This document shows positions 6,349 to 57,009 of a stretch of 64,000 bases of DNA, piece by piece. The stretch lies in the NCBI RefSeq assembly GCF_018977255.1, contig NW_024704743.1, positions 6,140,001-6,204,000 on the forward strand, in the 5' to 3' direction. The DNA is from Callorhinchus milii. Taxonomy: Eukaryota. The notes under the pieces were generated by a model, which did not search any database, was not told the DNA's origin, and was given only the letters and a program-made list of their open reading frames with translations. Numbering within the stretch: position 1 is the first letter of the stretch; each line of letters starts with the position of its first letter. A program made the translations under genes and the position numbers.

Positions 6349-6954
6349 AAAGTGCCCCTCAACAGAGAAGATAAACTGATCAAATTTAGTGTTTTATCCT
6401 CTTCTGGCACTTATGCCACAGGGGAGGTTCTATAGGACACCGAGTAGGTAACTGATGAAAGTAATATCTCATTTGAGCAAATGGTCCTTACAATGTTGTG
6501 GATTTGCATGCCAAACCTCAAGAGAACAAAATGAGTGGTCCCACAAAACAAAGTGTACACATTGAATTGGATGCAATTTGCATGCATTCAGCGGATTACT
6601 TCCCAGTTAGTGTCTCTGATCTAAACTATGGGAAGACGTTGTACTGGAGCAAAAGTGTGATTGGTGGGCACAATCTCGTGGCTCTAGACTTCAGTGGTAC
6701 AGTCACTGCTGTTGGCAGTGATGTGAAGAGTTGTAAAGTGGGAGATCATATTGTTGCATGTTACCCGGTTCCTGCAGCTTCAAATGTCAGCCTTAACTAC
6801 AACTGCACTTATATAGCACCTCCCACACAGGGTAGGGTCCCAGAACGCTTTATTCTACAGCAAACTCATTTCTTACTTACCTTGTCCACTATAGGCGAAA
6901 CCATGGGCTTGTGGAGCAGTTGTAAATACACTCAGTTGTAAATAATGCATAAAT
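6349..6954 (+). pseudogene. Internally deleted relic of the PKS last exon (four collinear pieces)
   Basis: 6349-6482 matches 40753-40886 (with two in-frame TAG); 6481-6794 matches 42042-42356; 6851-6918 matches 43494-43561; 6930-6954 matches 44145-44169 (stop codon and start of 3'UTR). A short reversed LINE/SINE tail fills 6795-6850. Confidence 0.95.
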
Positions 6955-9329
6955 TAACATTGCTGCCCCTCCCTTTAGTTATAAGAAATTTACATTTATG
7001 CGTATTCTGGTGAATGATGTTTATTAAACACGTACCACTCAAATGACTGTTATCTGTGGCTTTTAGCTTTGGACTAATATGAAATTCATTTTGTTGCAAA
7101 GTCTAATAGAATAAATATTGTGCATTCAGTTACAGTGAATCATTTCAAAATCTTACATTACAATCGGGAAGCTGAAAAAATAATCAGATATCTAATCGGT
7201 TACCCTGTAAATCTGGACGTGTTGTTACTGTTGTAAGATTATATTTGTGATAATTACTGCTTTTAAGGCTTTTAATTAGTCTTTATATAATTTTTAGAAT
7301 GTAACCAAACACTTATAATCTTTTTAGTATAGTATTTCTTAGTTACTAGAGCTTGGACAAGGTTGTTTGTTTTAATGACTAGCTTAGGGCTCCTGAGGGG
7401 GTTCATGTGCTAATTAGTGTTAGCAAAGGTAAAGATATATTAGTTTGACTCTGGCTGAGGTCAGGCTCTGATAACATTCTCTCGTTTGGTTCCTGGTACA
7501 TGTCAACCTCCTATCTGAGATTGAGAAATCGGCTTATCTCAAGACTAAGAAACAGGGAGCTGGCAGACGCCTCCCAAAAGCTGTCAATCTTCTTCTGATT
7601 GCAAAACAGTCGCTGGCAGCTTGAGAAGTGGGGCTTTTCTCAGAGGAAAAACTAGAGAAAAAGGCGGAGAAAATGTAAATCTGTTACAAGGGGAAGCGGA
7701 GATAGAAACACTTAAAAGAGAAATGTAAGTTTGGAATAGTTATAATAAATAATAATATAGTTGAAGTCGTTGTAGAGGGTCGGCACTTCCCAGTGGAATC
7801 AACATTGATTTTACTGTATGTACGGTCTCAGTTTTAAGAATAAATTGAGCAATTTGTATTGCTTAATAAACTTTGGATTATTACACAACCATATCAGTCG
7901 TCTCCATCCGAATCTCAGCGGAGGTGCTTTATCTATTGTCTGTGCTTCCTTCACATTTTCTTTTTATAAATGGTCAATGTTTAAGTCAATGTACATTGTG
8001 GTATTGTTTTCATTTTGATTTTTTGCAAACGCACTGGTAATAACTGGTATTCCATTCAATAATTGCTCTGTATCAGATACATGTGTAACAGGCACAATAA
8101 AGGTGATCATCTGCTAAAAGCACAAAGCATGATCAAAGTATTTTATTTATACTTTTTAAATTACAAATTTAAATTAAATGACAATGTAAAATATGAAACC
8201 AACTAATCTACAATAAGCAAATCATTAACACAGTGCTAAAGATTGGAACAAAGTAGAAAAACACTTTATGTTAATAAAACTAAAGCCATCCTGCATGATG
8301 AATGATCAACCAGTGACTGTCCTGGTGGGGTGGGTGATCAGGGTCTCATTGGGCCTCATCTGTCTGCAAAATAATGTGGTAGGAAAATTGGAATTGAGTT
8401 TTTCCCTGTGTGACAGTCTTGGTAGTCTGGTTACTTAGCTAGGTGGGGTCAAGGTACTCTGTAGCACAGTTGATGACAGACTATCCAGTCTGGCTTGCCA
8501 GTAGGATGTGGAAAGTCAGACTAGTCACTGGGGGTAGGATTTCTTTCCACTCATCTGCAAGCCCAAACTCCAAAAAGTGGGATGGTTCTATGTGAACATA
8601 CAGGCGATATAGCGAGAAGTTTGACAATCAGTGTGCAATGATAAGCTGTGCAGTTTGACCAAGTTAACTTTCTAGAGTAACCTGGGATTCTGTGATCTTC
8701 TGGAAGCACTTTATGGGATCCCCAACAACAGCATTTATATATTAAAAANTTATATAATAAAAGCACCTTGCACATTGGGAGGACATCCTGAAACCTCTTG
8801 CCAACCTCCACTTGATATTTTACGGAATTTGGTATATAATAATAGTAATCCTTGCATTTGATGTATCACTTTTCATCTCTTCGAGACATAAGCAGGGTGT
8901 GTTCCATTTTAGACAAACAGAAATGTCTCTGGGTATGTGACATGTTTATGTGGAAGTCTATGTCTGGTTTGGATGATCTTAAGCATGGCAATGGGTTTAC
9001 ACGACTCGGGCATCTGACTGACCCCCCCAAAAAATGTGTAAAGGATCCTCTCCTTCCTGCTCAGTGTTCCTCTTTATAAAGCTCTTCAAGACATCATCCT
9101 GTATAGGTAGACCTGCTATTATAGGGCAGCCCTAATGTTGCATGCCTCATCATCGGGCAAGTCTGCTTCATTGATCTTCTGCACAACTCTGCCATTCTCA
9201 AGCTCTTACCTCCAGATCCAGAAATGCCTCTTAACCCTTCAAGTCTCCCTGGTATAGCGAGCACCTCGGTTCCCTCAGTCCAGCACTCATGTAGCGCTTT
9301 AAATCTGACCTGACAGTCCTTTGCTAGAT

Positions 9330-10375
9330 TTGGCTGGACCACACCAAAGTCTACTGCTGTGCCCTCGCCTCAACCAAATTGGTTTTCTACTCCAAGATCA
9401 TCCTGGAAGCCACCACCAACCACATCCTCCACTCACCCTCATGTGCTCCCTCCATCCTCCTCTCCAACTCCAAATGTGAGGAAGTGATGGACTTCATTGG
9501 TTAAAAGATTGAGTGGATTTGCTTGGCTGCGTCTGCAACTCCCTTCCTCCTAACCTTTGCTTCCACACGTTACACCTGGTCTCTCGCTCATCCTCTCCAT
9601 CCTTGTCCCTCTCCTTCCTCATCCTTCCCCTCATCATCTCTCACATGGAATCCACCACCTGCTCTCTTGATCCCATCTCACACCATCCTTGGTTACACAA
9701 CTTTCCCATCTCATGTCTTTGCTAGTTAACATCATCAATGTCTCCACTTGCACAGTGCACCTCCTTTCAAAACCACTGTCATCAATCCCCTTCTGAAGAA
9801 ATCCTCATTTGACCGTTCCATACTCTCCTGCTACTCACCCATTTCCAACCTACCCTTCCTGTCAAAGGTGTTGGAATGAGTCCTTGCTTCCCAATTTTGC
9901 TCTTTCCTTTTCTGACTATTCTCTCTTTGAATCCCTCCAAACAGGCTTTCACTCTACCCATAGCATTTGGACTGCCCTGGTTAAGGTCACCGATGATATT
10001 TGATCCACCTGTGAACAAGGCTCCCTTTGCTTCCTTGTTATTGACCTTACTGCCGCCTTTGATGTCATTGACCATTCCATTCTTCTCCACAGTGTCTCCT
10101 TCTTCCACGGATCTGTCCTTTCCTTATTTTACAATTTTGTATTCCAATGGCTTCTTCTCCAAACCCCTCACAGTTACATGCAACGTTTCTTCGGGCTCTA
10201 TCCTGGATCATCCCCTTTTCATCATTTACATACTCTCACTCAGTGAAACCATCTGTAGATTTGAAGTTCCACACGTGTGCAGGTGACACCCATCTCTAGC
10301 TTCTGCCTCTAACATTGATTCCAGAACTAATGCAGTCGATTGTCTGAAGACATTAAAACTTGAATGAGCTCCCTG
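9330..10375 (+). mobile_element. Old decayed L2 LINE fragment
   Basis: Remnants [36 protein letters not shown]. Confidence 0.8.
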
Positions 10376-10722: not shown

Positions 10723-12422
10723 CTAGAAACAATCTGGATCAATCATACCAGCTGCCATGAGCTCTCGGATTTTAATCTGATATGGAGTAGCTACGGGAAA
10801 ATTATTTGGTATCTGAAGCTCATAGCTTCTCTGACTCACAATTATACAACTTGCCATTCCATTTGGTGATGGATTTATTTTGTCAACTTTTCGCTTGCTG
10901 CTCATTCCAAAAAATGTCAGAAACACCGGCATAAATACGAGGCCATGAATTGCACCAAACAATATGACAAGAAACATGATTTTGAAAAATGTCCGAAATA
11001 TGTAAATGTTTGCAGCAGCCAACACAACAACACCCAGAATAGTGGAGAGCGCCCCCTGGATAATGGGATAGCCAAGAGTGTACAATGCTTCGATGGTACG
11101 TTCATTGGCACTTGCTTTCTCATTTGAAACAAATGCATAGGAAATATGGGCTGTGAAGTCAACTGAAAACCCAATACAAATAACCAGATTAATCATAGAT
11201 ATGGAGTCCAGATTAACATCCCACAGAGCCATGAAACCAGCCACACCAGCTAAAATAGAGGCGACAGCTAATGTCACCCACACAGAACAAATTGGATTCG
11301 GAATTAACAACAAGGCAACAACCAGCATTGCACCTGCTGCCACAGCCACATTCTGTATTGTGTTGATCTGTATAACAAGATATTGATCAAAGTAAATGAA
11401 CGCTGAATGATACACTTGTAAAGGGATTGTACAGCTCTCGGCCAGATCTCTCAGTTCAGTCATCATGTTTTTTTCGGCAATTGAGTCATTGACATTTTTG
11501 GTCTGAATAAAAAACCGTGATGCTGTTATGCTTTTATTATCTTGTGAGAGTTCAATATCTTGTTGAAACAAAGGGACAATCTTAAACAATTTAGGTAAAT
11601 TTGTTATGAAGGAATCAGACGCCGTTATGTCAATAGACATCAGTTTAGAAATGTCAATGTATGTTCGAAGCCAAGACTCTGATAGCTCTCTATCTACATA
11701 AATGTTATTTTCAAATTTGCCCATACAGCGTTCAATTTCAGTCTGAACACTGGTGTTCCAATAGTCCACTGATTCTGAGACTGATACCATGACCCGAGGT
11801 CCATATTGTGAGAAAAACATATCTTCATGGTCATAGAATTTAATCACATATGAATTGTCAGTGGCCAGATTTCTAAGATCAAATCCTTCCTGTAACTGGA
11901 AACAGCCATAGATACCACCTGCCAAATACCCTGCATACAGCAGTACCACAAATACCTTGGTCCATATAATAGTGAGGAATGGGCCATAATATTTCTTAAA
12001 GAAGAGATAAATTGGATGCTCTGTTTCAGCACCGGACATCTCATCATACTCCCCACCAACACAGCACATTCCATAGAATTTCGATTCTCCTGGTTGATGG
12101 TGCATTTGAATCTTCCTGAAAGTCAGCCAATGCCTGTTACTGTTTTCTCTTCTCCCATTCAGTGCCAGAACCGCCCCAAAAAACGTAATGTTGTAAATGA
12201 AGCAGAACAAAACGGTAGTACCTGTATACAAGCAAAATGACTGCACAGATCGAAAAGGTGTCATGACACCAATGTAAAAGGCTATCACATCAGTCAGAGT
12301 CGTTATGGTAATGGAAGAAGCAGCTTCAGCATATGTGGCTGCCATGCGATCTTCGATTTTAGCATGAACCTTTGTCTTCTGCCAACTGGAGAGCATAATG
12401 AACATGTCATCAACACCAATAC
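10723..12422 (-). CDS. PTCHD3: PTCHD3-like exon 4 (last): end of sterol-sensing domain, second luminal loop and C-terminal transmembrane bundle
   Basis: Acceptor tctatag|GTATTGGT (phase 1), open to TAG at 10723. Contains GIGVDDMFIM, SITITTLTD, LDSISMINLVICIGFSVDFTAH and FRTFFKIMFLVILFGAIHGL, typical of Patched-related proteins. Confidence 0.93.
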
Positions 12423-13364
12423 CTATAGATAAGAATAACAAATAATCAGAGCCCCACTGAGTAGAGAGAGTGGGATTTGGAAATACAACATCAACAAGTT
12501 CCTTGAAATTCTACTAATTTAAAGCATGAAATTGTATCAGAGCCCACATTTCTTATTTCTTTTAATAAATAATACTAATAATCTTTGCATTTGATATAGC
12601 ATCTATAATATTTAAAGTCTCAAGGTACTTTATTGTTGAATGTATTATGTATTTCTAGGTAGCCATGGAAGCCATCTTATTCACTGCACTGTCTCGCAAG
12701 CAATTGATCTAGAGAATTGCTACCGGAATACTGGAAGACTCTCCTTTATCTTTTCAAATACAGTCATGGTTTACTTACTATCAGGCAGAATGGAGCAGAA
12801 GGGGCAAGCCTGAATATATAATAATTCTTGCAATTGATGTCATGCCTTATGATGTCATTGAGATCTTTTAAACAGCTTCACAAGATTTTACTGTAAAGTG
12901 TAGTGACTGTAATTGTAGGCAATATGGGTCAAGCTGGGGATCTGTGGCAACTTAGAATTGTAGAGGCCTCAGTCACGTTTCCCTTGCATAAATTCCCTGA
13001 CTCTGAGCGGGGGTGGGAGGGGAGAGGAAACTGTAAGTACAGTCGAATATGAAGCCTGCTTCACATCCCCCGCCTTGCTCACCCCACTATTGGCAGGCGG
13101 GCCTTCTGCCACTCTGTCCCCACCCTCTGGAACTCCGTCCCACAGTCCCTCCGTCTTGCTACCCCACCCCCCACCTCGCCACCTTGAAGACCCACCTCAA
13201 GACCCTCCTTCCTTTTCGACTGTGCTTTCGATCTCCCTGCTTCCCCCCCTGCCCTCCACCCTCCCCCACCCCCAGCTCGGGTCCATAACTCTGTCTGTCC
13301 AGCACCTTGGGATGTCTCCCGATGAGAAAGGCGATATACAAATGGCTATTTTGTTGTTGTTGAG

Positions 13365-14640
13365 TAATCCAGGCGGAGGTGACAAACGCATACACGAGGG
13401 TTTTGGCTGCATTTTGGGTAAGGTGCGATCGGGGATGGGCAATGTGGTGGAGGTGGAAGAAGGCGGTCCTGGTCAGCAACTGGTTCTGGGGAAGGAAGGA
13501 AAGCTGAGGGTCGAACCAGATGCCTAGATTGCGCACTGGTTCAGAGAGTCTGAGGGAGAGGCTGGGGAGGATCTGCAGGAGTGAAGATGGGAGCCAAAGA
13601 GTATGGCTTCCATCTTGTCCACACTCAGCTGCAGGAAGTTTGCACTCATCCAGGCCCTGATGTCTACCAGACAAGCTGATAGAACATCAGGGGACCTGGA
13701 GTCGCAGTTGGAGGAGGCAAACTAGATTTGTGTGTCATCCGCATACTGCGTGTCTGCAATGACATCACCAATAGAGAGCACGTAGATGACCCCGGATGCC
13801 CTGGGGTACCCTGCAGGTGACCAGGCAGGGGCAGGAGGAGAAACCATTTGTTGAGATGAAGTGGAGGGGGTTGGTTAAGTAGGACTCGAACCAAGCACTC
13901 TCACTAAGGTGGATGAGGGATGAGAGGTTGTGGAGGAGGATGGCATGGTCGACAACGTTGAATGCGACAGAGATCCAGGAGGATAAGGAGGCAGAGGGAG
14001 CCCTGGTCATAGATAGAGAGCACGTCATTTGTGACTTCGGCAAGCGCTATCCCTGTGCTGTGGGCAGTTAGGGTGAAAATCAGACTGCAAGGGCTCGAGG
14101 AGGGTGTGAGCAAAGTTGACCTGCAACAATGCATTCCAGGACTTTGGCAAGGAAGGGCAGGTTGGAAATGGGATGGTAGAGTGAGAGATTAAGAGGGATC
14201 GAGGGTGGGTTATTGAGGAGAGGTGTGATAACAGTGGTTTTAAGGGGGAGTGGAACAGAGCCTGAGGAAAGAGACTGGTTGACCGTGTCGGCCAGCAGGG
14301 GGGAGGAGAGGGGGAGCAGCTGGTTGGGGAAGCGGGCGAGGCAGCAGGTGGTGAACTTCAGGCGGGTAATGGTGGTTGAGAGGGAGGATGAAATGGGGGC
14401 AAATGTGTGTAAGGAGGGCAAAGTGGCAGGAGCCGTGGCGGAGGGAGAAGGCGGTGTGGATGGTCTGGTTGTGGTGGAAGGAGACATGGTGGGGATGACG
14501 ATCCAGCCAAGCAGATGTTTTCAAACTTTGAGGCAAAGAAGTCTAGGACCTCTTCGCACTTGGCGTTTGATGTGAGGATAGAGGGAGCTTGAGTGGGTGC
14601 ACGGAGGAGGTGATGCACGGTGGAGAACAGTGTCTTTGGG
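13365..14640 (-). mobile_element. Decayed L2 LINE in PTCHD3 intron 3 (an opposite-strand L2 tail lies at about 13060-13362)
   Basis: [52 protein letters not shown]. Confidence 0.85.
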
Positions 14641-14919
14641 TTGAATAGACTTGGTCATTTGAAAAAATTCTTTGCTCGTTTTATGTTTTCTTATGTTTTA
14701 ATTTAGACTGTACTGAACTGCACCTAAAATAAACAAGAATTTATAAAATAAACGAGTACATGCCCAGTTGGATTTTACGTTTGGTGTCAAATATTTGAAA
14801 ATATGGCATTTTCACAATGTCAAATCATATACACTCACCATAATCTTACAATGTATTTTTATACTCCTTTCTCTACAGTCCATCAATAGAAAACAAAACG
14901 AGACACAAATGTCAAACTA

Positions 14920-15108
<189 letters not shown>

Positions 15109-15178
15109 TTACCTTAATGTCACACAGTAAGTCAATGAAAATGAATTCCAACTTTACTTAATAGAGAAAGAACTTTAC

Positions 15179-15300
15179 CTCATACAAGACACAATGGAAA
15201 AGAATATTGAAAGGAAATAGGTGATTGAAAATAGTGGTACGATTTCTTTGCTGCTTCCTTCAAACTCTGTCTGTCTTGATACGGAAGTGTAATACGAAAC
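15179..15300 (-). CDS. PTCHD3: PTCHD3-like exon 2
   Basis: Acceptor attacag|GTTTCG and donor ATGAG|gtaaag; VSYYTSVSRQTEFEGSSKEIVPLFSITYFLSIFFSIVSCM(R); 122 nt, phases 0 and 2. Not in the ORF track. Confidence 0.92.
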
Positions 15301-15564
15301 CTGTAATTGAGGGGGGAAATTCTTTATAGCATCTTATTAAATGATCAGATTTCTGTTGAAAGTAAGAAACTTGACATAATATCCTGTTTGTATGACAGAC
15401 ATACTTTCATTAATTTAAAAGAACTATGAGATTGAATAACATAAGTGTGTGTTCATTAACAAATATGATGGAAGGCTCATGAACTGGGCCAATAGAAAAG
15501 TGCAGCCGCAATTTTTCCACGGAATAATAATAAATATTATCCCCCTTTGTTACAATCACCCTCC

Positions 15565-16580
15565 TTCGCTATAAACACCCCCCTCCACTACACTCCTACC
15601 TCCACTACAAACACCCTCCCATTACAAAACCCCCCTCCCCTGCAAACACCCCCTCCCCTACAACACCCACCTCCCTACAAACACCCCTCTCTGCTGCAAA
15701 CACCCCCCTCCGCTACAAAACCCCCTCCGCTACAAACACTCCCCACCACTACAAACACCGGCTCCGGCACAAACAAACTGTTCACTACAAACATCCCACT
15801 CTGCTAGAAACAGCCTCCGCCTACAAGCAACCCTCCGCTACAAACACCCCCCACTCCTCTACAAACACTCCCCCTCCCCTACAAACTACAAACATTCCCC
15901 TCCCCTATGAACACACCCTCCCCTACAAACACGGCCTTGGCACAAGCAAACTCTCTGCTAGAAACACCCCCCTCCGCTAGAAACTGCCTCCCCCTAACAA
16001 CCCTCCTCTCCCCTACAAACAACACACCGCTACAAACATCACCACCACCACCAACAACAACAACTTGGATTTATATAGCGCCCTCCACGCCGGATGGCGT
16101 CTCAGAGCGCTTCACAGTAACGGATCCCGGGGGAGGGGGGGGAAGGTGACCAAAGGCGCGGTCAAAGAGAAAGGTCTTCAGCCGAGACCTGAAAATAGGA
16201 AGAGAGGGAGCGAGGCGAAGGCAGTGAGGAAGGAAGTTCCAGAGCCTCAGGGCATAGTGTCTGAAGGCACGGCTGCCGAGGGTGGAGCAGAGGACTCGGG
16301 GGATGAGGAGGCCAGACCCGGAGGAACGAAGGCGACGGGCACTGTTTTGACAAGAGAGGAGGTCAGAGAGGTAGGGGGGGGTGCAGAGGAGTGGAGGGAT
16401 TTCAAGACAAGGGTGAGGATCTTGAAGTCGATCCTTTCTGGGACAGGCAGCCAGTGCAGTCTGACACCCACCCCGACACCCCCATCACTACAAACACCAC
16501 CACCCCCTACAAACACCGGCTCTGGCACAAACAAACCCTCCACTACAAACTTTCCCCTCCGCTAGAAACAGCCTCCGCTG
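15565..16580. repeat. Degenerate minisatellite (about 18-nt unit CTACAAACACCCCCTCC), interrupted by an L2 3' fragment at about 16053-16463 (-)
   Basis: More than 20 copies of ctacaaac/ctagaaac followed by C-runs; the L2 piece encodes RLHWLPVPERIDFKILTL. Confidence 0.85.
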
Positions 16581-17714
16581 GTCAGTGGCAAATGACGTTT
16601 TGTTAATCTGTGATGAAGGCCCCCTCTGTCTCCTCGTCCTCCTTGACCTCTCTGCTGCTTTTGACACCGTTGACCTCTTCTCACCACAACCTTCAGGGCT
16701 CTGTCCTTGACTGGTTCATATCCTACCGTTCACACCGCCTTGTCATGGTTACTCTATTTTTTGCAATACTCTATCCTGCATAAATTGTATCAAATGTTTT
16801 GCAAATATTAATATTAATAATCTATATGTTGGGGGTTGCTTGTCCCTTTAAGAGGGTTAAGTCTCCTTTTTTGCAAGCAACAGTGGAGACACTGGGCGCT
16901 TAGAGAGAGAAACAATTACTTGTACCAAGTTAAAAGCACGTGGTGTTTAATGCGGGAAAAAAACCACTCTACTTTGTTTAATGGGAGAAACCATTGCCTA
17001 TATAAGGAAGAGGCTGGCTCACTTGGCCCAACTTTTAATAGTATGTGCCTGACTTGAGGGGCACGACCTCCAAGTCAAGATTGGTCTTTATTATTATTAT
17101 TTTCACTAACATTATTATTTGCTCCCAATTTATCCCAATCAGTTGTTGAATCGTGTTGTATCTGTTTCATTGTTGTGTTTAACTGATTCGCTTTGACCTA
17201 GAAGTAAGATGGAAAGACAAACGCCTGTCTTTAGTTGATAAACATCTGTTGTACCTGCTCAGTATTGCCTTTGAGTCTGTTATATCCTCTGTTATATTCT
17301 CTTCAACCATGCCCTCAGCTCCCCTCTCGACTCTCTAGCCCCTCCTCGCTTCCTCCCTTCCCTCCCCTCACCCTGACCATTTCCCCCCTGCTCGGGTCCC
17401 GACCCAACTGTCCAGCGCCTTGGAACGTCCTCCCGACTTGAAAGGCGCTCTATAAATGCAATCTTGTTGTTGTTGTTAGGGATGGAGGGAGATAAAACAC
17501 ATTAAAGCAGGAATTGCCATACCTAGTAGCCTAATAGTTCAATAAGGCATTGGGTCAGTAAACCGAACGGTAATACCTGTCGTTGTGTGGCTCCGAAATA
17601 GTCAAATTAATAGTAAATTACTCAAGAGCAGGAATTTCCAATACAGAGGCCACACAGTACACTTTGTGTTACTGACATTTGCGGGGTACACGGAGGGGTG
17701 AGAACTGTCGCAAT

Positions 17715-19130
17715 CTCCACTGTCTCCACAAACGGCATCTTCTCTAGCCCCCGCACCATCTCATGCGATAATCCTCAGGGCTCTGCCCTTGTTCCTCTCC
17801 TCTTCAACATCTACATGCTCCCTCTTGGTAACATCAAGGGTTATTATCGTCCACAGGTGTGGGGTCAACTTCCACATGTATGCGGATGACACCAACTCTA
17901 TCTGTCTGCCTCCACCCTTGACTTCAGGACCACTGTCAAGCATCAAGTCCTGGATGAGAGCTAACTTTCTCCAGTTGAATGTCAACAAGACCGAGGCTCT
18001 CCTGATTGACTCCCATGGGGTTGGAGTGACAGTAAGCACGGTCTAACAAGAAGGTTTTCAGGTGGGACTTAAAAAAGGGGAGAGGGGGTAAGACAGAGGG
18101 ATTGAGGGAGAGTATTCCAGAGTTTTGGGGTGTAGTGGCTGAAAGCGGGACCTCCGATGGTGGGGCATAGAGTGTGAGGGATGAGCAGGAGGCTGATGCC
18201 AGTCGAGTGGAACAGCCGGGTGTTGGATTGGGGAGTGAGGAGGTTGGAGAGGTAGGGAGGTGCCTAGTGAAGGGATTTGAACACAAGTGTGCGGAACTTG
18301 AAGTTGATCCGTTTGGTGATGGGGAGCCAGCGGGTCATGGCCAAAACTGGTGAGATGTGGATATGTGTAAGTATGTGGGCGGCAGAGTTCTGAATGAGCT
18401 GGATCTTTTGAATAGTGGAGCTGGGGAGACCCGTGAGGAGTGCGTTTGAGTAATCCAGACGGGAGGTGACAAACACTTGCATGAGGGTTTGGGCTGCATT
18501 TGGGGTAAGGTACGGTCGGAGGTGGGCAATGTGGCAGAGGTGGAAGAAGGCGGTCCTTGTCAGGGACCGGATGTGGGAGAGGAATGACAGCTGTGGGTCG
18601 AACTGTATGCCTAAATTTCACACTTGTTGGGTGAGTGTGAGGAAGAGCCCAGGGAGGTTGAGGAGTTCAGATCGGCAGGAGTGAAGACGTTGATGGGAGC
18701 CAAGGAGTATGGCTTCCGTCTTGTCCACATTCAGCTGCAGGAAGTTTGCACTCATCCATGTCCTGGTGTCTGCCAGATAAGCTGATAGAACATTGGCGGA
18801 CCTCGATTTGTTACTGGAGGAGGCAAAGTAGATTTGTGTGTCATGCCCATACATGTGGAAGTTTACCCTGTGTCTGCGGAGGAAGCACATAGATAAGGAA
18901 AGGAAGAGGACCAAGGATGGAGCCCTGGGGTACCCTGCAGGGGACTGGGTGGGGGTGGGAGGAGAAACTATTTGCCGAGGTGAAATGGAGGTGGTTGGCT
19001 AAGAAGGACATGAACCATGCGCGTGTTGTCCCATTAGGGTAGATGAGGGAGGAGAGGTGGTGGAGGATGATGGCGTGGTCAACTGTGTGGAACGCAGAAG
19101 AGAGATCCAGGAGAACTAGGAGGCTGAGGA
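17715..19130. mobile_element. Two abutting L2 fragments (+ 17715-18010; - 18030-19130)
   Basis: HMYADDT and WMRANFLQLNVNKTE on +; [20 protein letters not shown] and WLPITKRINFK on -. Confidence 0.85.
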
Positions 19131-19419
19131 GCTCTGGTCACCCTCATCCTCACCCGGCTCCACTCGCTCCCCATTCCCCAGAGCAGGGTAGTCCAGCCTT
19201 TTGGCTGCCGATGGCCATATTCCTTATTTGAGAAAGGTCTATGGGCCACAAGCAATATTTTGTGTTTCCCTTCCAGAAACATAACAACATTGACACAGCA
19301 CCGTTTCCATGTTGGAAGGACATCTCAAAGCGCTCGACACTGCTGGCTGGTCGCCTGAGCTGGGTGTTGTAGCCGAGGGAGGTGGGACAGGGAGGGGAAA
19401 GATGACCCAAGAGTCAAAG

Positions 19420-19655
19420 AGTTCCCCTCTCCCCTCTCTCAATCCCCTTCTCTCAGTTCCCCTCTCCTCCCCCTCTCTCAGTCCCCCTCTCCTCCCCTTC
19501 TCTCAGTCCCCTCCCTCTCTCTCAATCCCCCTCTCCTGCCCCTCTCTCAATCCCTCTCTACTCCCACTCTCTTAATCCCCCTCCCCTACTCTCGCTCAGT
19601 CCCTCTCTCCTCCCCCTCTCCCCTCACTCTCTGTCCCCCTCTCCCCATCTCTCAA
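19420..19655. repeat. Polypyrimidine (CT-rich) low-complexity repeat
   Basis: Repeated ctctcagtcccctctcctcccc-like units. Confidence 0.85.
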
Positions 19656-20545
19656 TTATTCCTTCTTTCCCAATCGGCCGCACAGGTCACTACGTGCAGT
19701 GGCAGGAGCCACCGATTGCTAAGGACACAGAAGACAAGGAGACAAGCTTCCCTTCCCCTGGGCTCCACTCTCCGCGCTGTGTCCTCCCAACCGCCTCCTG
19801 CCGCTGCCCTGGGAGGACTTTCACCAGGTTCGGAGGGAGGGAGGGAGCGGAATTTGGAATGTTGGAAAGCGTCACGGACCAAATAAAATCACCCGCCGGG
19901 CCTTGATACCTCTGTGACCTCCTAAACCCCTATCAACTGTCCCCTCCCTCCGCTCAGCGGGCTCTGGCCTGCTTCATGTCCCCCGCCTTGTCCGCCCCAC
20001 CATTGACAGTCTGGCCTTCAGCCTCTCTGCCCCACCCTTTGGAACTTCATCCTACATTGCCTTTGCCTCACTCCCTCCCCTGGCTCCTTCAAAGCACGTC
20101 TCAAGACCCTCCTCTACGACTGCGTATTCGGTCACCCTCCTACCCTTACCCTCCTTCTCTTCACCCCCTGATCCCAATTCCCCCCAGCTCAAGTCCATAT
20201 CCCTGACAGTCCAGCGCCTTAGGATGATCTCCTAACATGAAAGGCGCTATACAAATGTAATTTGTTGTTGTGGTTTGAAGGTGCGGAGGGAGGGGGTGAG
20301 TCAGCGGTAGTTGGAATGAGTTGTTGTTATTGGTCATGGATACGTTCTGCATAAATCAGTAACACAAATAAAAATCTCTATTCACCAGCATTCACTTCAC
20401 ACCACTAACTAATGAGCGTTTATACTGCATGTAGATTTAAACACTTTTTGTTGAGGAAGACAAATACTATAGGTTACTGCAGATGCAGCCGTTCATTAAC
20501 AGTAAAATAACACACACACTGAGGTATTTTGCAGTTAAAACTTAC

Positions 20546-21259
20546 CTGAATATTTTTCAGCACTGTTGAGCGTTTCGGAATTTCATCAATAAACTTCGTC
20601 AGCCACCGCTCATTTTTTGGTGCGTTGTTATCTCGTAAATAATAATCAAGTCTAACGGCAGAAGCTGTTTTAATATAATTTCCCTCTAACTTCACTCCCC
20701 CCACAGACAAACCAATGAAACCACTACATTCTGTGCTATTCTGGACGGGATAAGTAAATTTAAAGCTCTCCACTTGACCAGCATCGTACTGTATACAGTC
20801 TAACATTACATTGGAGAAGCAGGAATCTCCTGCTTTGGCACAAAGACTGGAATAGTTATTCTTATCAACAACAAACCCTTTAACTTCCCCATCGAGCCGC
20901 AGAATCTCTTTAAATGCTGCCTCTGTGAGGACGCTGCCACCTTTAGCAACAGCGATGAAAGAAGCAAAGGTCCCCTCTGTGTAGAGCCTCGGCGCCGAGA
21001 AGGGCAGAGAATCATGAGTTGGAAAGTGTTTCATAATAAACTCTCTCTCAGACTTTGCCTGACCGTGAATAGGAGTGAACTGCTCCTCTATGTCATTCGT
21101 TTCATTTTGCTCAAAGAAATAAAACCCTGCGCCTAGAGCTGCAGAAATGATCAGAGGAATCACCAAAAACCACCATGGATATCGCCCAACGAGGGCTCCC
21201 AACTTCCCGAAAACTTTACAGAGAGGTTTCTCCAGACAGTCAGTGTGACACCGAGCCAT
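20546..21259 (-). CDS. PTCHD3: PTCHD3-like exon 1 (TM1 and first luminal domain)
   Basis: Kozak gaccATGG; MARCHTDCLEKPLCKVFGKLGALVGRYPWWFLVIPLIISAALGAGF...NDIEEQFTPIHGQAKSER; donor ATTCAG|gtaagt at 20546/20545; 714 nt, phase 0. The four exons total 2682 nt, or 893 aa plus stop. Confidence 0.93.
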
Positions 21260-32966: not shown

Positions 32967-33200
32967 GTAATGATGTGTCTTTACAATTACATCTTTTATA
33001 TTGATTCAAAATACTAATATTTGTAGCTGCAAAACAAATACTTTTTGTGTGAGCTGGACACTAAACATTGGTAGCACGTAATTGCAAATCAGTGAAGAAT
33101 GATTAACCACTTTGATAGATTCATTCATTATCACAAAGCCTTTTAACTCTGAAACATGAAATAAAACCAATCCAATTTGTTTCTTCTCTGCAATTGATAG

Positions 33201-34150: not shown

Positions 34151-34195
34151 TTTCAATCAGAGGTTTCTGGGTTTAGGCTCTATGTCAGTTTAGGC

Positions 34196-35904: not shown

Positions 35905-36086
35905 GCGATTGTGAAATGGCTGTTTGTGGAGGAGTGAGCTGCATCATTGAACCGTGTGTCAATGTAGTGCTTAGTAAAGCAAAGATGATATCTCCAGATG
36001 GAATGTGCAAACCATTCTCTAAGAAAGCTGATGGGTATGGGAGAGGAGAAGGATGTGGAATTCTTCTGTTGAAACCATTGGCAAAG
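35905..36086 (+). CDS. pks1: PKS exon 5 (KS)
   Basis: tttcag|GC GAT TGT GAA ATG ... KPFSKKADGYGRGEGCGILLLKPLAK|gtaaac; phases 1 and 0. Confidence 0.95.
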
Positions 36087-40542: not shown

Positions 40543-42008
40543 GAATATAACTTCACCTTGTCAACATTGACAGTACCTTATGTAGCTGAACACAAAAACA
40601 ATGGAGTGCCCATACTTCCCGGTGCCTTTTATGTAGAACTTGGTGTGGCTTCCGTCCTGGCAAGTATTGAACCAAAGGTACCACTCACTTTGTGCCGGAT
40701 CAGCGCAAAGTTTCTGAATCCTTGTATAATCCACCAGAACTCAGTTGAGCTCAAAGTGCACCTCAACAGAGAAGATAAACTGATCAAATTTAGTGTTTTA
40801 TCAACTTCTGGCATTTATGCCACAGGGGAGGTACTACAGGTCACTGAGTGTGTAACTGATGAAAGTAATATCTCGGTTGAGCAAATTTTCCAAAGATGCA
40901 AATCGAAAGCAAAGCCAGAGGACATCTATAAAGAACTCTCTTCTTTAGGCTTTCAGTATGGATCAGTTTTTAGGCAACTTGGGGATATCTTCTATGGAGA
41001 GAATTTGAAGGAAGCTATAACATGCATTAGAGTACCAGAAGAGCTCATGTCACAGATTCATCAATACTCCTTTCACCCAATCATTTTAGACTATTTTCTA
41101 CAAATGGCTGCTGTTGTAACAATGATGTCTGCAGTCTCCAGCATAGGGTTCCCCACATCTGTAGGGAGCTTGGTTATTCATCGCCCTTTACAACAAGAAA
41201 TGCTGATGTATCTGAGGATCAGTAAAATCACTCCAGATTATCTAGAGGTCTGTGGGGGCTTCACAGATACAAAGGGCATAATCATTGCCGAACTGAAAAA
41301 TATCAGAACCACATTTCTAACCGTGAACAATGGAGGAGGAATCAATGATTTGTTCTATGAAAGTATCTGGGTAGAAATTCCTCACCTTCAAGAGGGCAAA
41401 AATCTTGCTTCTGGCCCAAGATCACTCGTGTTTGGTGATAACTATGGAGTGGCTGAAAGCCTCAAGAAATTCCTGCACAGTCAGTCCACATATATTCCTT
41501 ACCAGGAATATGACAATTTCACTGGTACAGAAGTTGTGGATCTTCTGAGAAAGTACAATGTCCATGACCTGAATAGCTATGAGGAGGTGTTCTTCCTGTG
41601 GGGGACTGTAAACCTGACTGACCAGACCAGCACAGCAGTGGTGCAGGAGGTCAGTAGCTGCTGTGAGATTTATCGTCAGATCATTCAGTTAGTTCGAGGG
41701 AAAAATGGCACAAAATCTGTTAGAGTAATAACATACAGGACATCTGAAAAAACAGTGGATCAAATTACTCCAGGGTTTGCCCTGTGGGGTATGACCAGAT
41801 CATGCAGTGCAGAAATTCCAGAGGTTTTATTTCAGATCATTGATGTCAGCTCTATCAGTGATGCAGATATGGCAGCATTAGCTAATGTAATAGTCTTGTC
41901 TGATGGGGTGACCCACCCTGAGGTAATGATCAGCCAGGGAATGTTGCATGCTTCCACGATCACACGAACATCCCTTATAATCTCAGACAATACCAATGGT
42001 GGGACTTT
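40543..42008 (+). CDS. pks1: PKS exon 6, part 2: dehydratase and pseudo-methyltransferase/structural KR region (between frameshifts; right boundary approximate)
   Basis: EHKNNGVPILPGAFYVELG (DH HxxxGxxxxP), LGFQYGSVF, HPIILDYFLQ (DH Asp), GFALWGMTRS. Confidence 0.9.
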
Positions 42009-44156
42009 TATTCTGGTTTTGGAAATGTCCTTTTCCAGATCATGGATCCTTACAATGTTGTGGATTTGCATGCCAAACCTCAAGAGAACAAAATGAGTGC
42101 ACCCACAAAACAAAGTGTACACATTGAATTGGATGCAATTTGCATGCATTCAGCGGATTACTTCCCAGTTAGTGTCTCTGATCTAAACTATGGGAAGACG
42201 TTGTACTGGAGCAAAAGTGTGTTTGGTGGGCACAATCTCGTGGCTCTGGACTTTAGTGGTACAGTCACTGCTGTTGGCAGTGATGTGAAGAGTTGTAAAG
42301 TGGGAGATCATATTGTTGCATGTTACCCGGTTCCTGCAGCTTCAAATGTCAGCCTTCCTGCTGTTGTTTGTTTCAAAAGCAAGAAAGTACCATTGCTGAA
42401 GGAGATCCCTTGTGTGTCATACTTCACAATAGCATGGGAAATATTCCATAATCTCTTACCAAAACCCAAACATCAGAAACGCTTGGTAATTGTTTCCATG
42501 ATACCTGATTCGTGTTTGAGTAAAGTCTTGTCTCTGACAGCCAGGGAGTCTGGCTGGAGAGTTCAGGTTCACCCAGACTCCAATGACTTTGTACAGATTC
42601 CTGTTCACTTTGATGCTTTGGTTTTATTGCCACCTTTAGAGAAAACCTCTATTTCAAAATATGTCAATGGTTCTTCTGCTCGGGATATTGTTGTTCTGCT
42701 GGACAACAAGCAGATGCTTGATATTTCCCAAGACATTCTCCAAAATGAAAAGGACAATGTCTGTATTCATGTTCTGCAGTTAGCCAGTATATTTCAAAAG
42801 GGCTATCTCACGAAATCTGCAAATCGTATCTATAAATGGATGAGAAAAATGTATTTAGGGATGAATCGTTTTGATCTATCAAAAATGGTCTTCCAGCAAA
42901 GAATATCAGACATGGTTGAGTGCAGGAATGAGTCGTACTTTACATGCAGAGAAGTCTCCATTGCAGTTCTGAAGAGCACCACCAAGACTAGGATGTCAGA
43001 GATTCCAATGCACTGCAGACAAAAGCAGCTCTTTAAAAGTGATGCTGTGTATATAGTTGCTGGAGGACTTACCGGTCTTGGCTTTGAAACTGTGAAATTC
43101 ATTGCCAACCATGGCGGTGGCTATATTCTTGTTCTTTCAAGGAGCTCTCCATCGAAGGAGAAGCAGGAGGAATTTAGCAAACTACAGAATGAAATTGGGA
43201 CAAGGATCATTTGCGTGGCCTGTGACATCTCAGCTCTGTCAAATGTCGAGAAAGCAATCAGTAATTTTCTTCACTCCTTCCCAAAGGTTTCTGTTAAAGG
43301 AGTGTTTCACAGTGCTGTGGTCTTACATGATTCACTCTTTGAAGATCTAAATAAATCATTGTTTGATAAGGTTCTTGTTCCCAAAATTGCTGGGGTCTTG
43401 AATCTTCACTATGCAACACAAGGCCTCCAGCTGGAGTACTTTGTGTGCTTTTCCTCAATTGCTTCATTCTTTGGATCATCTCTACAGGCTAACTATTCTG
43501 CAGCAAACTCATTTCTTGATTACTTTGTCCACTTTAGGCGATACCATGGGCTTGTGGGGCAATCTGTGAACTGGGGAGCACTGAATCTCGGGCTGCTGCT
43601 CAATAAAGACAACGTTCAGAAATTTCTGGAGTTGAAAGGGATTTTGACAATAGAAATTTCTGAAATCATTGAAAGCTTTGAACGTTGTTTGACCCTGAAC
43701 AATCCACAACAAGTAATCTGTAAATTTGATTTCTCAAATATATATGTTAATGTCTCCCAAAACCCATCAAGCAGGAGACGTTTCCATTCAATTGTGCAGG
43801 AAGAGATCAGCAAAGGAAATGTTAAAGTGGTGGTCAGTGATTCATCAATATCTCCTGAACAGTATATAATAACCTTGTTGTCTGAAGTGAGTAACACAGA
43901 TCCTACAGACTTTACCAAAGAATCTACTCTCTCCAGTTTTGGCATTGATTCCATGATAGGAATGACCATACAGAATCGGATTCACCAGGAAAAGAATGTC
44001 AGTGTGCCACTAGTAACATTTCTTGATCCAAAATCAACAGTGTCCACTCTGGTATCACTGTTTGAAGAGGAAGGTTTCCAAGTTCATTCTGGGGAAACAT
44101 CTATGCCATTGAACAAATCTTTCGAGGAAGTTCCTGATGAGTTTACTCAGTTGTAA
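42009..44156 (+). CDS. pks1: PKS exon 6, part 3: ER-like domain (probably inactive), KR, ACP; stop at 44154-44156
   Basis: LDFSGTVTAVGSDV (ER fold, no GGVG loop), YIVAGGLTGLG, VFHSAVVLHD, FSSIAS...QANYSAAN (KR), FGIDSMIG (ACP Ser). No thioesterase after the ACP. Confidence 0.95.
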   Translation, partial: YSGFGNVLFQIMDPYNVVDLHAKPQENKMSAPTKQSVHIELDAICMHSADYFPVSVSDLNYGKTLYWSKSVFGGHNLVALDFSGTVTAVGSDVKSCKVGDHIVACYPVPAASNVSLPAVVCFKSKKVPLLKEIPCVSYFTIAWEIFHNLLPKPKHQKRLVIVSMIPDSCLSKVLSLTARESGWRVQVHPDSNDFVQIPVHFDALVLLPPLEKTSISKYVNGSSARDIVVLLDNKQMLDISQDILQNEKDNVCIHVLQLASIFQKGYLTKSANRIYKWMRKMYLGMNRFDLSKMVFQQRISDMVECRNESYFTCREVSIAVLKSTTKTRMSEIPMHCRQKQLFKSDAVYIVAGGLTGLGFETVKFIANHGGGYILVLSRSSPSKEKQEEFSKLQNEIGTRIICVACDISALSNVEKAISNFLHSFPKVSVKGVFHSAVVLHDSLFEDLNKSLFDKVLVPKIAGVLNLHYATQGLQLEYFVCFSSIASFFGSSLQANYSAANSFLDYFVHFRRYHGLVGQSVNWGALNLGLLLNKDNVQKFLELKGILTIEISEIIESFERCLTLNNPQQVICKFDFSNIYVNVSQNPSSRRRFHSIVQEEISKGNVKVVVSDSSISPEQYIITLLSEVSNTDPTDFTKESTLSSFGIDSMIGMTIQNRIHQEKNVSVPLVTFLDPKSTVSTLVSLFEEEGFQVHSGETSMPLNKSFEEVPDEFTQL

Positions 44157-51405: not shown

Positions 51406-52574
51406 AATTCACAGAGCTTGGTAAGGCACTATCTCTCATTGTATGTCAAGTCCAAGAGTGTTGTGGTTAGCGCTCTTGCCTCACAAACAAGAGAACCGGG
51501 TTTGATTCCCGTGCAGGGAGAAACATTAGGCAAGTTTCCTTACTCCACACGCGTCTGTTTACCCAGCAGTAAATAGGAACCCGGGTGTTAGTCGATTGGC
51601 GGATCGGTTTCCGGGAGCAAAAATTCCCACTTTTGCACTGTTGATGTCCAGGTATTGGTGCTGATGACATGTTCATTATGCGCTCATTTCTTGTTTGTGC
51701 TGATCCCATTTTGACCGCATTGTAAAAGCATGTACTTAGGGATTTGCGTGTGAGCATTGGGATACTGCTGGAGTCTAACCAGCTAAAACCACATAGCTAT
51801 CGATATCGCTGTCTGGCAAGCTTTCTCGCTGCTTTTCCAGCTGCTTTTCCAGCGAGGACCATCGTACCCATGAGGGCTTTCACTTGCAGGGTTAACATGA
51901 GCTCAGTGGGATGATTCCCTGCCCTAAGTGATGATCTGCCCTTCCAAGTCCTGCTGATGAACCAGGCTGGTTGTTCTGTCATCAGCTGCATCTGGGAATA
52001 CTACGGACCCGCCTGGCTCAGAAACCGGACCACTGAGACCAACGTAGAGGGCTGGCTCAATTCCAACATGACATTGCCAAATATGCCACCTTGGAGTCAC
52101 TTAACTACCGCCCCCCCCTCCCCCTGCCCCTCCGCCCCACCCACCAATCTCCTGGAGGATAACCAACCTAATCCCATTCTCCTGATTGTTTCCTATATTT
52201 CTTCGTATTCCTCCTCTTCAAGTATCTCTGTCAAAGCAATTTACGAAAGCAGCTTCAACTAAGGTTTTGTAACAGAGAAATCCACATCCCACACACTCTC
52301 TGTGTAACGATTATTTTTCTAAACATCCCTTTAATTTTTTTCTGATTATTTGAAATGTGTGCCTTTCCTTTACTGACTCGATGACTGATGCAAATAAGCT
52401 ATTATTCATTGATTACAGGTTTCTTCTTTGCGCTTATTTCTTCTTTGTGCTGACCAGGCTGGCTGTGCTGTTATCTGCTGTGTCCACCCGCCTGGCTCAG
52501 GATCTGGACTACCGAGACCAACGTAGAGGGCTGGCTCAATTCCCACATTCCGCCTAGCCCGACTTACATGGCAA

Positions 52575-52760
52575 ACAGTAAGTCAATAAAAATGAGTTAT
52601 GCTGCAGAGAAAGAACTTTGCACAAGACACAATGGAAAAGAATATTGGAAAGAAATAGGTGATTGAAAACAGTGGTATGATTTCTTTAAAGTTTCCGTCA
52701 AACAATACCTGACTTGATAGGGAAGTAAAATATGAAACCTGTAATATTTGCAGCATCTTA
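52575..52760 (-). pseudogene. Isolated relic of PTCHD3 exon 2 with intron flanks, copy 1
   Basis: Aligns with about 15124-15335. Acceptor attacag is kept (exon start 52738); translates VSYFTSLSSQVLFDGNFKEIIPLFSITYFFPIFFSIVSC; the GT donor is deleted. Confidence 0.9.
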
Positions 52761-55700
52761 GTAACTCACAGTGATAATAATTCTTGTATTTGATATAGTG
52801 TTGAAATATAGTGTTTTCCTGATTATCTGAAATTTGTGCCGTCCCTTTGCTGACTCGATGACTGATGCAAATAAGGTATTAATCATTGAGCTTATTTCTT
52901 CTTTGTGCTGACCCCATCTTGACCACACTTTTAAATACATGTGCTTTGACAAGGAAATTTGCATTCAATTTCCTTTAATTTATTACCAAAGGCCATCTTA
53001 ATACTGCTCCATTGTTCCACCTCTCACACAAGGCATGAATCATTTAGTGATATCACTTATCCTCATGAATGTATCAAACCAAGTAAGAATAATAATTATG
53101 CGTCAGATCAAATACTAGTTAATGTCACGTACTTATTAATGGAATCAAGTTGGCCCAAAATTTTTCCTAGTGATCTTATATTGAATGCCATTGATATGAA
53201 CTATCGAGTCAGCCTTGCAATGTTGGCAGTACACTTGTCTTTGAGTCAGAGGTTGTGTACTTACCTCCCACATCAGGTCTTGGAACTCATTTAGGCTAAG
53301 ATAATAATAATCCTTGCATTTGATATCGCGCTTTTCACATCTTCTCGACGTCTCAAAGCGCTTCACAGAATAGACAGTAAAGTGAATTGACCGTATATTT
53401 GTGGGCGATGACGCTCCAATGCATTGCTGGGGGGTGTGCTACATTGTTGGAAATGCCATCCTTCAGATCAAATGTTAAACTGAAGCCCCATCTGCCTTTT
53501 CTAGTGGACATTAAAGATTGCATTGCACTACAGTATTTGAAAAGAAAAGGGAGTCTTTCACAATGTCTTGGCCAACAATCCCAAAGTAAAACTGGTCATT
53601 CACTTGTGGCTGTTTGTGGAACAATGTTATATGCAAATTGACCACCATGTTCACCCAAAAAAGCAAACATTCACTACACTTTACAGTATATATCTTGTTT
53701 AGTGCTTTGGGTCGTCTTCCCAATGTGAAAGGCACTGTATGAAATGTAAGTATTATTGTTTTGTTATTATTATTATTACGAAACAAAGCTTTTGCTATGA
53801 CAATGTGCATTTGAGTCCTTAGATGTGCTGTACCCGAAACAATGTTCATGATATCATTCTCACATTGAATTCTTCAAAAAATGCATTTTTAAAATGATTA
53901 TTACTATTGTTCATTGATTACAGATTTCTTCTTTGTTCTTATTTTAGGATAGGCTCAGACACTTATTACCAAAAAGAAGAATTCTTTATTCAAATGTGTC
54001 CCAACCTAAACATGGAAATTCCAGAGATAGATTGTTGGAATGAAATGTGCACTCTCTCCCTGGAGGGACACATTTCGTTTCCAAATTCCGGCAATGATTA
54101 GGCACAAGTTGGAAAGAGCCAATGCTTAGGGACTCGAGTGTGTGCATTGGGATACCAGCTAAGACCACATAGCTTGCCATTGATATCGCTGTCTGGCAAG
54201 CTTTCTTGCTGCTTTTGCAGCTTGGACCATCTTACCCATCAGAGCTTTGGCTTGCAGGGTTAACATGAGCTCAGTGGGATGATTCCCTGCCCTAAGTGAT
54301 GGTCTGCCCTTCCAAGTCCTGCTGATGATCCAGGCTGTTTGTTCTGTGATCAGCTGCATCCGGGAATACTACGGACCCGCCTGGCTCAGAAACCGGACCA
54401 CTGAGGTCAACGTAGAGGGCTGGCTCAATTCCAACATGACATTGCCAAATATTCCACCTTGGAGTCACTTAACTACCATCCCCCCTCCCCCTGCCCCTCC
54501 GCTCCACCCACCAATCTCCTGGAGGATAACCAACCTAATCCCATTCTCCTGATTGTTTCCTATATTTCTTTGTATTCCTCCTCTTCAAGTATCTATGTCA
54601 AAGCAATTTACGAAAGCAGCTTCAACTAAGGTTTTGTAACAGAGAAATCCACATCCCACACACTCTCTGTGTAACAATTATTTTTCTAAACTTCCTTTAA
54701 TTATTTTCCTGATTATCTGAAATTTGTGCCGTCCCTTTGCTGACTCGATGACTGATGCAAATAAGGTATTAATCATTGAGCTTATTTCTTCTTTGTGCTG
54801 ACCCCATCTTGACCACACTTTTAAATACATGTGCTTTGACAAGGAAATTTACATTCAATTTCCTTTAATTTATTACCAAAGGCCATCTTAATACTGCTCC
54901 ATTGTTCCACCTCTCACACAAGGCATGAATCATTTAGTGATATCACTTATCCTCATGAATGTATCAAACCAAGTAAGAATAATAAATATGCGTCAGATCA
55001 AATACTAGTTAATGTCACGTACTTATTAATGGAATCAAGTTGGCCCAAAATTTTTCCTAGTGATCTTATATTGAATGCCATTGATATGAACTATCGAGTC
55101 AGCCTTGCACTGTTGGCAGTACACTTGTCTTTGAGTCAGAGGTTGTGTACTTACCTCCCACATCAGGTCTTGGAACTCATTTAGGCTAAGATAATAATAA
55201 TCCTTGCATTTGATATCGCGCTTTTCACATCTTCTCGACGTCTCAAAGCGCTTCACAGAATAGACAGTAAAAAGTGAATTGACTGTATATTTGTGGGCGA
55301 TGACGCTCCAATGCATTGCTGGGGGGTGTGCTACATTGTTGGAAATGCCATCTTTCAGATCAAATGTTAAACTGAAGCCCCATCTGCCTTTTCAGGTGGA
55401 CATTAAAGATTGCATTGCACTACAGTATTTGAAAAGAAAAGGGAGTCTTTCACAATGTCTTGGCCAACAATCCCAAAGTAAAACTGGTCATTCACTTGTG
55501 GCTGTTTGTGAAACAATGTTATATGCAAATTGACCACCATGTTCACCCAAAAAAGCAAACATTCACTACACTTTACAGTATATATCTTGTTTAGTGCTTT
55601 GGGTCGTATTCCCGATGTGAAAGGCACTGTATGAAATGTAAGTATTATTGTTTTGTTATTATTATTATTACAAAACAAAGTTTTTGCTATGACAATGTGC

Positions 55701-56823
55701 ATTTGAGTCCTTAGATGTGCTGTACCCGAAACAATGTTCATGATATCATTCTCACATTGAATTCTTCAAAAAATGTATTTTTAAAATGATTATTACTATT
55801 GTTCATTGATTACAGATTTCTTCTTTGTTCTTATTTTAGGATAGGCTCAGACACTTATTACCAAAAAGAAGAATTCTTTATTCAAATGTGTCCCAACCTA
55901 AACATGGAAATTCCAGAGATAGATTGTTGGAATGAAATGTGCACTCTCTCCCTGGAGGGACACATTTCGTTTCCAAATTCCGGCAATGATTAGGCACAAG
56001 TTGGAAAGAGCCAATGCTCAGGGACTCGAGTGTGTGCATTGGGATACCAGCTAAGACCACATAGCTTGCCATTGATATCGCTGTCTGGCAAGCTTTCTTG
56101 CTGCTTTTGCAGCTTGGACCATCTTACCCATCAGAGCTTTGGCTTGCAGGGTTAACATGAGCTCAGTGGGATGATTCCCTGCCCTAAGTGATGGTCTGCC
56201 CTTCCAAGTCCTGCTGATGATCCAGGCTGTTTGTTCTGTGATCAGCTGCATCCGGGAATACTACGGACCCGTCTGGCTCAGAAACCACTGAGGTCAACGT
56301 AGAGGGCTGGCTCAATTCCAACATGACATTGCCAAATATTCCACCTTGGAGTCGCTTAAGTGTTGCCCCCCCTCTCCCCGCCCCTCCACCCATCAATCCC
56401 CTGGAGGATAACCAACCTAATCCCATTCTCCTGATTGTTTCCTATATTCCTTCATGTTCCTCCTCTTCAAGTATCTCTTTAAAAATAATTTACAAAAGCA
56501 GCTTTAACTAAGGTTTTGTAACAGAGAAATCCACATCCCACACACTCTCTGTGTAACGATTATTTTTCTAAACATCCCTTTAATTTTTTTCTGATTATTT
56601 GAAATGTGTGCCTTTCCTTTACTGACTCGATGACTGATGCAAATAAGCTATTATTCATTGATTACAGGTTTCTTCTTTGCGCTTATTTCTTCTTTGTGCT
56701 GACCAGGCTGGCTGTGCTGTTATCTGCTGTGTCCTCCCGCCTGGCTCAGGATCTGGACTACCGAGACCAACGTAGAGGGCTGGCTCAATTCCCACATTCC
56801 GCCTAGCCCGACTTACATGGCAA

Positions 56824-57009
56824 ACAGTAAGTCAATAAAAATGAGTTATGCTGCAGAGAAAGAACTTTGCACAAGACACAATGGAAAAGAATATTGGAAA
56901 GAAATAGGTGATTGAAAACAGTGGTATGATTTCTTTAAAGTTTCCGTCAAACAATACCTGACTTGATAGGGAAGTGAAATATGAAACCTGTAATGTTTGC
57001 AGCATCTTA
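56824..57009 (-). pseudogene. Isolated relic of PTCHD3 exon 2, copy 2
   Basis: Nearly identical to copy 1 (offset 4249), exon start 56987, same donor loss. Confidence 0.9.

Follow-up and report, generated by a model that had tools for sequence, protein, structure and literature searches.

Remains of PKS and PTCHD3 genes in Callorhinchus milii are probably debris of an interleaved tandem array

We analysed a window of 64,000 nucleotides from Callorhinchus milii (assembly GCF_018977255.1, contig NW_024704743.1, positions 6,140,001 to 6,204,000), which contains a polyketide synthase (PKS) gene, a PTCHD3 gene and broken remains of both; coordinates below count from the first letter of the window. 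The window probably covers one section of a tandem array of interleaved PKS and PTCHD3 copies under birth-and-death evolution, with the relics as its non-coding debris. The initial annotation had instead proposed that a single block, PKS on the plus strand followed by PTCHD3 on the minus strand, was duplicated in tandem and then lost reciprocally, preserving one of each gene as dosage-linked partners. In general terms it was right that the two genes were duplicated within one interleaved cluster. The single block event is not supported, given remains on both strands, many copies of both genes and the lack of any shared unique spacer; the alternation of genes and relics needs neither such an event nor dosage balance.

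Results

The two genes of the window lie head to head, about 10 kb apart. PTCHD3 (10723..21259, minus strand) has four exons (21259-20546, 15300-15179, 15067-14922 and 12422-10723) and an intact, open frame of 893 codons that is identical to the C. milii RefSeq protein P0122 (893/893 aa). Its Pfam matches are Patched, Sterol-sensing and MMPL, and it is closest to vertebrate PTCHD3. The vertebrate iterative PKS (31517..44156, plus strand), delimited by tblastn of P0252 and by Pfam, has six coding exons; all domains of the KS-AT-DH-KR-ACP layout were found by Pfam, and the motifs that we take to mark its active sites are present. It is 98.6% identical to P0131 (29 differences over 2045 columns, P0131 lacking its first residues). 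Both genes had been described as intact, which holds for PTCHD3 but not for PKS as written: its last exon carries two one-base frameshifts, near 40542 and 42007. In contigs from four sequencing runs aligned to 38500-44900, the extra base was present at 40542 in all four runs and at 42007 in three of four, and the frame of P0252, an older annotation, runs unbroken for 2107 aa. The frameshifts are probably assembly errors, which is unproven because contigs of a multi-copy gene may derive from other copies.

The PKS relic consists of four pieces of the last exon, collinear with the gene on the plus strand; about 1155, 1137 and 583 bases have been deleted between successive pieces. Piece 1 (6349..6482), from the dehydratase region, matches 40753-40886 at 122 of 134 positions (9% diverged) and contains two stop codons. 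Piece 2 (6481..6794) is only 1.6% diverged from 42042-42356, with 309 matches, 5 mismatches and 1 gap, and the first junction, between these two pieces, shows two bases of microhomology. The second deletion is filled by 56 nt (6795..6850, minus strand) that are 75% identical over 57 columns to a repeat end at 16056-16112 (E 7.5e-7), presumably the 3' end of an L2-type repeat. Piece 3 (6851..6918), from the ketoreductase region, matches 43494-43561 at 61 of 68 positions (10% diverged) and retains two residues that are ancestral as judged from sharks and rays. The last stretch (6919..6954) comprises an 11-nt insertion, which is a copy of adjoining sequence, and the PKS stop codon with the start of the 3' untranslated region; here 6930-6954 equals 44145-44169 (25/25), and homology to the live gene ends 13 bases past the stop codon, at 6954.

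The alignment of run contigs yielded 16 joints, and the first relic junction was not found among the 15 of them that were listed. The second, 42356>43494, recurred in two of the four runs and the third, 43561>44145 with its insertion, in three (X1, X2 and X4), so the relic is real DNA, as the initial annotation had it. Divergence is heterogeneous among the pieces (12/134, 5/314 and 7/68; p=2e-4), and piece 2 was probably overwritten by gene conversion. Beside the relic, a LINE/L2 copy (LINE, long interspersed nuclear element) at 5574-6291 stops 58 bases before the relic begins; it is a young member of its family, as are the copies at 46215-47316 and 59258-60929. The three are 89-94% alike, and the last contains a reverse transcriptase domain within a frame of 487 codons.

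The PTCHD3 remains lie on the other side of the PKS gene. Two relics of exon 2, both on the minus strand, were compared with 15113-15307: the copy at 52563..52745 shows 156 matches, 26 mismatches and 14 gap columns, and the copy at 56812..56994 shows 157, 25 and 14. They include about 60 bases of intron 2, and the donor site has been destroyed by a 5-nt deletion. Although both had been reported correctly and on the correct strand, they do not represent two events: the copies are identical at 455 of 459 positions and lie inside local repeats of 93-97%, and therefore count as one relic doubled locally. A search of the window also revealed what the initial annotation had missed, the start of exon 4 with its acceptor AG at about 51650..51685 (34/36; 58 bits, compared with a best score of 32.8 in 100 shuffles) and a second such piece at 58329..58363 (32 matches, 3 mismatches, 1 gap). 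Both of these are on the plus strand, opposite to live PTCHD3 and to the exon-2 relics. Thus the claim that relics keep the orientation of their parents stands for the PKS relic and the exon-2 relics but not for the exon-4 pieces. With remains on both strands, the dead copy has been partly inverted and its original strand is unreadable from the window.

Exons 1 and 3 of PTCHD3 left no remains in the window detectable by tblastn, blastn or nhmmer. The pieces that did survive are surrounded by a scrambled local repeat array (51427..59269) built of internal repeat pairs of 93-97% identity, namely 52814-54799 with 54704-56683 (96.6%), 51778-52809 with 56046-57058 (93.4%) and 51427-52455 with 58106-59120 (94.1%). 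Among the best 120 of 1368 matches, we found no further living PTCHD3 of C. milii, more divergent than the known copies, to which the exon-2 relic might belong.

Both genes exist in several copies in C. milii. The PTCHD3 cluster has 11 members, including five C. milii RefSeq proteins (two of them isoforms) from four full-length loci on one 125.6-Mb contig, and the three loci outside the window are 93-95% identical to the window's gene. The PKS cluster has seven members; a second C. milii PKS, XP_042188442, is on the same 125.6-Mb contig, is 96.8% identical to P0252 and is itself labelled 'low quality protein'. Indels affect both annotated PKS copies of C. milii in the present annotation. With four PTCHD3 loci and at least two PKS loci on the same contig, the view that one of each gene was kept fails. 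Moreover, the run contigs contained three further deletion joints within the PKS exon (X1, X2 and X4): 41905>42302 (396 bases skipped) and 43266>43846 (579 bases) in three of four runs, and 40173>40315 (141 bases) in one of four. Other broken PKS copies therefore exist outside the window. Some PKS joints were present in only part of the four runs, but contigs cannot show absence, so individual variation is not readable from them.

In a 60-protein FastTree, the C. milii PTCHD3 copies formed one clade (support 1.0), separate from those of sharks and rays, whose paralogues fall into three clades; on this tree the C. milii clade is placed as young and the shark and ray clades as older. Among the four C. 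milii loci, five informative sites favour one grouping and ten another (counted by eye), a conflict that fits exchange between copies but that chimaeric gene models could also cause. At two places the window's PTCHD3 departs from the other C. milii loci: residues 211-236 (window 20546-20630) differ at 15-16 of 26 positions with the remainder nearly identical, and its tail (10723-10760) makes it longer (893 aa, versus 861-866). These differences suggest a conversion boundary or local selection.

Interleaving of the two genes appears to extend to other cartilaginous fishes. RefSeq accession numbers are taken here to follow chromosome order, and in Scyliorhinus canicula seven of the eight numbers from XP_038654123 to 130 belong to one or the other gene, interleaved, with PTCHD3 at 4123, 4127 and 4130 and PKS at 4124, 4126, 4128 and 4129. 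Consecutive numbers also interleave both genes in Hypanus sabinus and Pristis pectinata (PTCHD3, PKS, gap, PTCHD3). In the clusters examined, the PKS:PTCHD3 counts, which are lower bounds, were 1:3 in Heterodontus, 1:3 in Pristis, 1:2 in Heptranchias, 6:3 in S. canicula and 2:4 in C. milii. Such varying counts give no suggestion of a fixed dosage, leaving the proposed dosage linkage unsupported. In the P0135 cluster, S. canicula is represented by six PKS accessions that are nearly identical; four of these interleave with the three PTCHD3 accessions, and the catshark set is an apparent independent expansion.

Several measures bear on the ages of the relics, and the window as a whole holds relic divergence classes of 1.6%, 9-10% and 14-15%. 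Overall divergence was 24/516 (4.7%) for the PKS relic versus 25/182 (13.7%) for the PTCHD3 relic (p=1.3e-4). Where living C. milii and the outgroups have different residues, the exon-2 relic retains the ancestral one at three of five sites (hand count), namely F4, N16 and I21, where all five C. milii proteins are derived; in the same class of sites PKS piece 1 retains 1 of 11, piece 2 none of 20 and piece 3 two of three. By likelihood, attaching the PTCHD3 relic within the crown of living copies was 3.5 log-likelihood units worse than attaching it to the stem. Likelihood profiles, in which the PTCHD3 rate scale reached the lower bound of the values scanned (0.5), joined this relic to the C. 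milii stem 0.6-0.7 down (interval 0.2-1.0) and PKS pieces 1+3 at 0.2 (0.1-0.5); for piece 2 the best point was the crown (0-0.1). An attachment point common to the PTCHD3 relic and the whole PKS relic was rejected (p=0.044), as was one common to the PTCHD3 relic and piece 2 (p=0.008). At synonymous sites, the divergence of PTCHD3 (3/26.7) and of the older PKS pieces (4/45.2) is by itself too noisy for dating. C. milii evolves slowly and split from sharks 420 million years ago (PMC3964593). With that split and an assumed clock, rough dates calculated by hand are 290 (120-420) million years on the PTCHD3 side and 105 (65-220) million years on the PKS side. Of the two relics, that of PTCHD3 is probably the older, as the initial annotation had judged by eye.

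If one block had been duplicated, its two copies should have non-coding DNA in common, and the two sides of the window were compared accordingly. About 35% of the window is covered at least three times by self-matches to interspersed repeats. With these masked, the comparison of 1-21259 with 31001-64000 returned the exon pieces and, beyond them, just six matches that were scattered or resembled repeats. Beyond the exon-2 intron flank and the 13 bases past the PKS stop, no unique spacer or intron homology was present in the 3088 unmasked bases on the left and 5022 on the right. A shared-insertion test was likewise negative: identity between the two old L2 copies that follow the PKS ends is 69.5%, no higher than their identity to further copies (68-72%).

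Discussion

Together, these data point to ordinary gene-family turnover as the local history. The additional copies that we observe would have arisen by unequal crossing-over between the many interspersed repeats. Microhomology, retroelement filler and templated insertion at junctions are typical of end-joining repair, and surplus copies may have died by this route, through internal deletions like those observed in the PKS relic. The mosaic divergence, also observed directly, could reflect live copies overwriting parts of dead ones by gene conversion. We infer that the PTCHD3 relic would come from an old paralogue of the chimaera lineage that split off before the present C. milii copies and was later partly inverted and doubled, and that the PKS relic, a mosaic, probably arose later. 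The series PKS, PTCHD3, PKS, PTCHD3 on alternating strands is the middle of any interleaved array: it looks the same whether it came from tail-to-tail or head-to-head units with decayed neighbours, and the change of layout that had been proposed is therefore not deducible from the window.

Some observations weigh against the birth-and-death reading, and some suit its main rival, an old tandem duplication of a two-gene block and reciprocal loss, followed by conversion of the middle of the PKS relic and then a young expansion. We regard this account as unlikely, yet it agrees with how the PKS relic, PTCHD3, PKS and the exon-2 relic are ordered and oriented. Different relic ages had been named as grounds for refuting the block, and they are different for the whole PKS relic; for pieces 1+3, at 19/202 (9.4%) versus 25/182, they are not (p=0.20). 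A common attachment of these pieces and the PTCHD3 relic, with a split about 0.3 down the C. milii stem, is allowed (p=0.21), and both lie outside the living crowns; since their ages are indistinguishable, a local block duplication keeps some standing. For the 39-residue exon-2 relic, an approximately unbiased (AU) test did not reject placement in the crown (p about 0.15), nor most placements over the 47 branches. Deletions of the kind that cut up the relics could also have removed any spacer once common to both halves, so the spacer test weakens the block model but does not overturn it. The shark and ray gene order is inferred from accession numbers and carries no strand, and a common contig is no proof that the C. 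milii copies are adjacent, their positions and strands being unseen. Against the block stand the absence of common spacer or intron DNA beyond the exon-2 flank, the opposite strand of the exon-4 pieces, the unequal best attachment points (0.6-0.7 versus 0.2), and the presence of many copies rather than one of each, in ratios that vary among clusters even as lower bounds.

A quite improbable account is that the relics were never whole genes but fragments of nearby copies, inserted by DNA repair or mobile elements. The start of the PKS relic 58 bases from a young L2 copy, the filler at two junctions and the position of the PTCHD3 pieces among repeats and on both strands would suit such insertions; four PKS pieces that keep gene order and strand down to the stop codon, and similar internal deletions in other copies, would not. 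Nor would the exon-2 relic, whose genomic intron and ancestral residues point to a once separate gene. It is very improbable that the relics or their placing are assembly artefacts, as the likely indel errors in PKS and a single N at 8749 might hint: both later junctions of the PKS relic recur in other runs, divergence of 9-15% with stop codons is unlike consensus errors, and the repeats at 51-59 kb differ by 3-7% (the run contigs were compared at 38500-44900 only). We therefore favour the interleaved array, with its relics as the remains of dead genes.

Multigene families under birth-and-death evolution have young live copies, pseudogenes of several ages and lineage-specific clades. The C. 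milii array shows these features but, unlike textbook families, interleaves two unrelated genes. A comparable arrangement is known in the wall lizard Podarcis muralis, where the interval from Rab18 to Acbd5 carries five full-length Pks copies, five of Ptchd3 and a pseudogene, with old and recent tandem duplications in a region that is hard to assemble (PMC10990284). The two loci are alike in that both genes are multi-copy, a pseudogene is present and assembly is difficult; in C. milii, by contrast, every living PTCHD3 copy is of recent origin, and only exon scraps are left of the dead copies. As Rab18 and Acbd5 fall outside our window, gene content is our basis for assuming the same interval. 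The lineages with expanded PKS/PTCHD3 now include chimaeras and, judged from accession order, sharks and rays as well; the earlier description that we found concerns lizards only. We found no study of the PKS/PTCHD3 locus in cartilaginous fishes and no functional test of the pair in the literature searched, mostly without subscription papers.

The association of the two genes reaches further. PTCHD3 neighbours almost all clam PKS homologues, and this linkage was cited as proof of animal origin (PMC9894158, text on Fig. 4D); the accessible text places the same PKS-PTCHD3 neighbourhood across animals and, in that portion, gives neither orientation nor a function for the pair. The window PKS shares its KS-AT-DH-KR-ACP layout with medaka OlPKS, which is required for otoliths (PMC4604110), and with bird PKS, which is mostly single copy, with two copies in chicken and quail (PMC6334511). 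Ptchd3 knockout mice are normal and the gene is non-essential (PMC7285965).

One tentative possibility is that PKS and PTCHD3 form a biosynthetic pair, in which a lipid-polyketide synthase would be matched with a sterol-sensing, RND-like membrane protein that moves its product. Mycobacteria have PKS-MmpL pairs of this kind. Selection might then hold the linkage from clams to vertebrates, and the expansions that recurred independently in chimaeras, catsharks, rays and lizards might, together with the relics, record the birth and loss of paired modules. This reading rests on the published linkage (PMC9894158), on the Pfam MMPL match of PTCHD3 and on the interleaved copies; the copy ratios, however, are not 1:1. 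If PKS and PTCHD3 were partners, PTCHD3 would gain a role and the arrays would constitute a natural experiment.

Other features of the window

The spacer between the two genes contains an inverted pair of 80 bases (28823-28901 and 29354-29433, 74 matches) that is unique in the window and lies 2.1-2.7 kb before the PKS start. Each arm has a TATA-like word, and there is a possible splice donor near 29023. One possibility is that the arms represent the core promoter of PKS and an inverted duplicate of it directed towards PTCHD3; another is that they are the two ends of a small DNA transposon. The same spacer holds an old direct repeat (24902-24999 and 28632-28729; 74 matches, 21 mismatches) found as this pair only. 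The N at 8749, between the PKS relic and PTCHD3, may mark an assembly join. Finally, an imperfect palindrome of 123 bases, 80% self-complementary, is present at 1263-1385.

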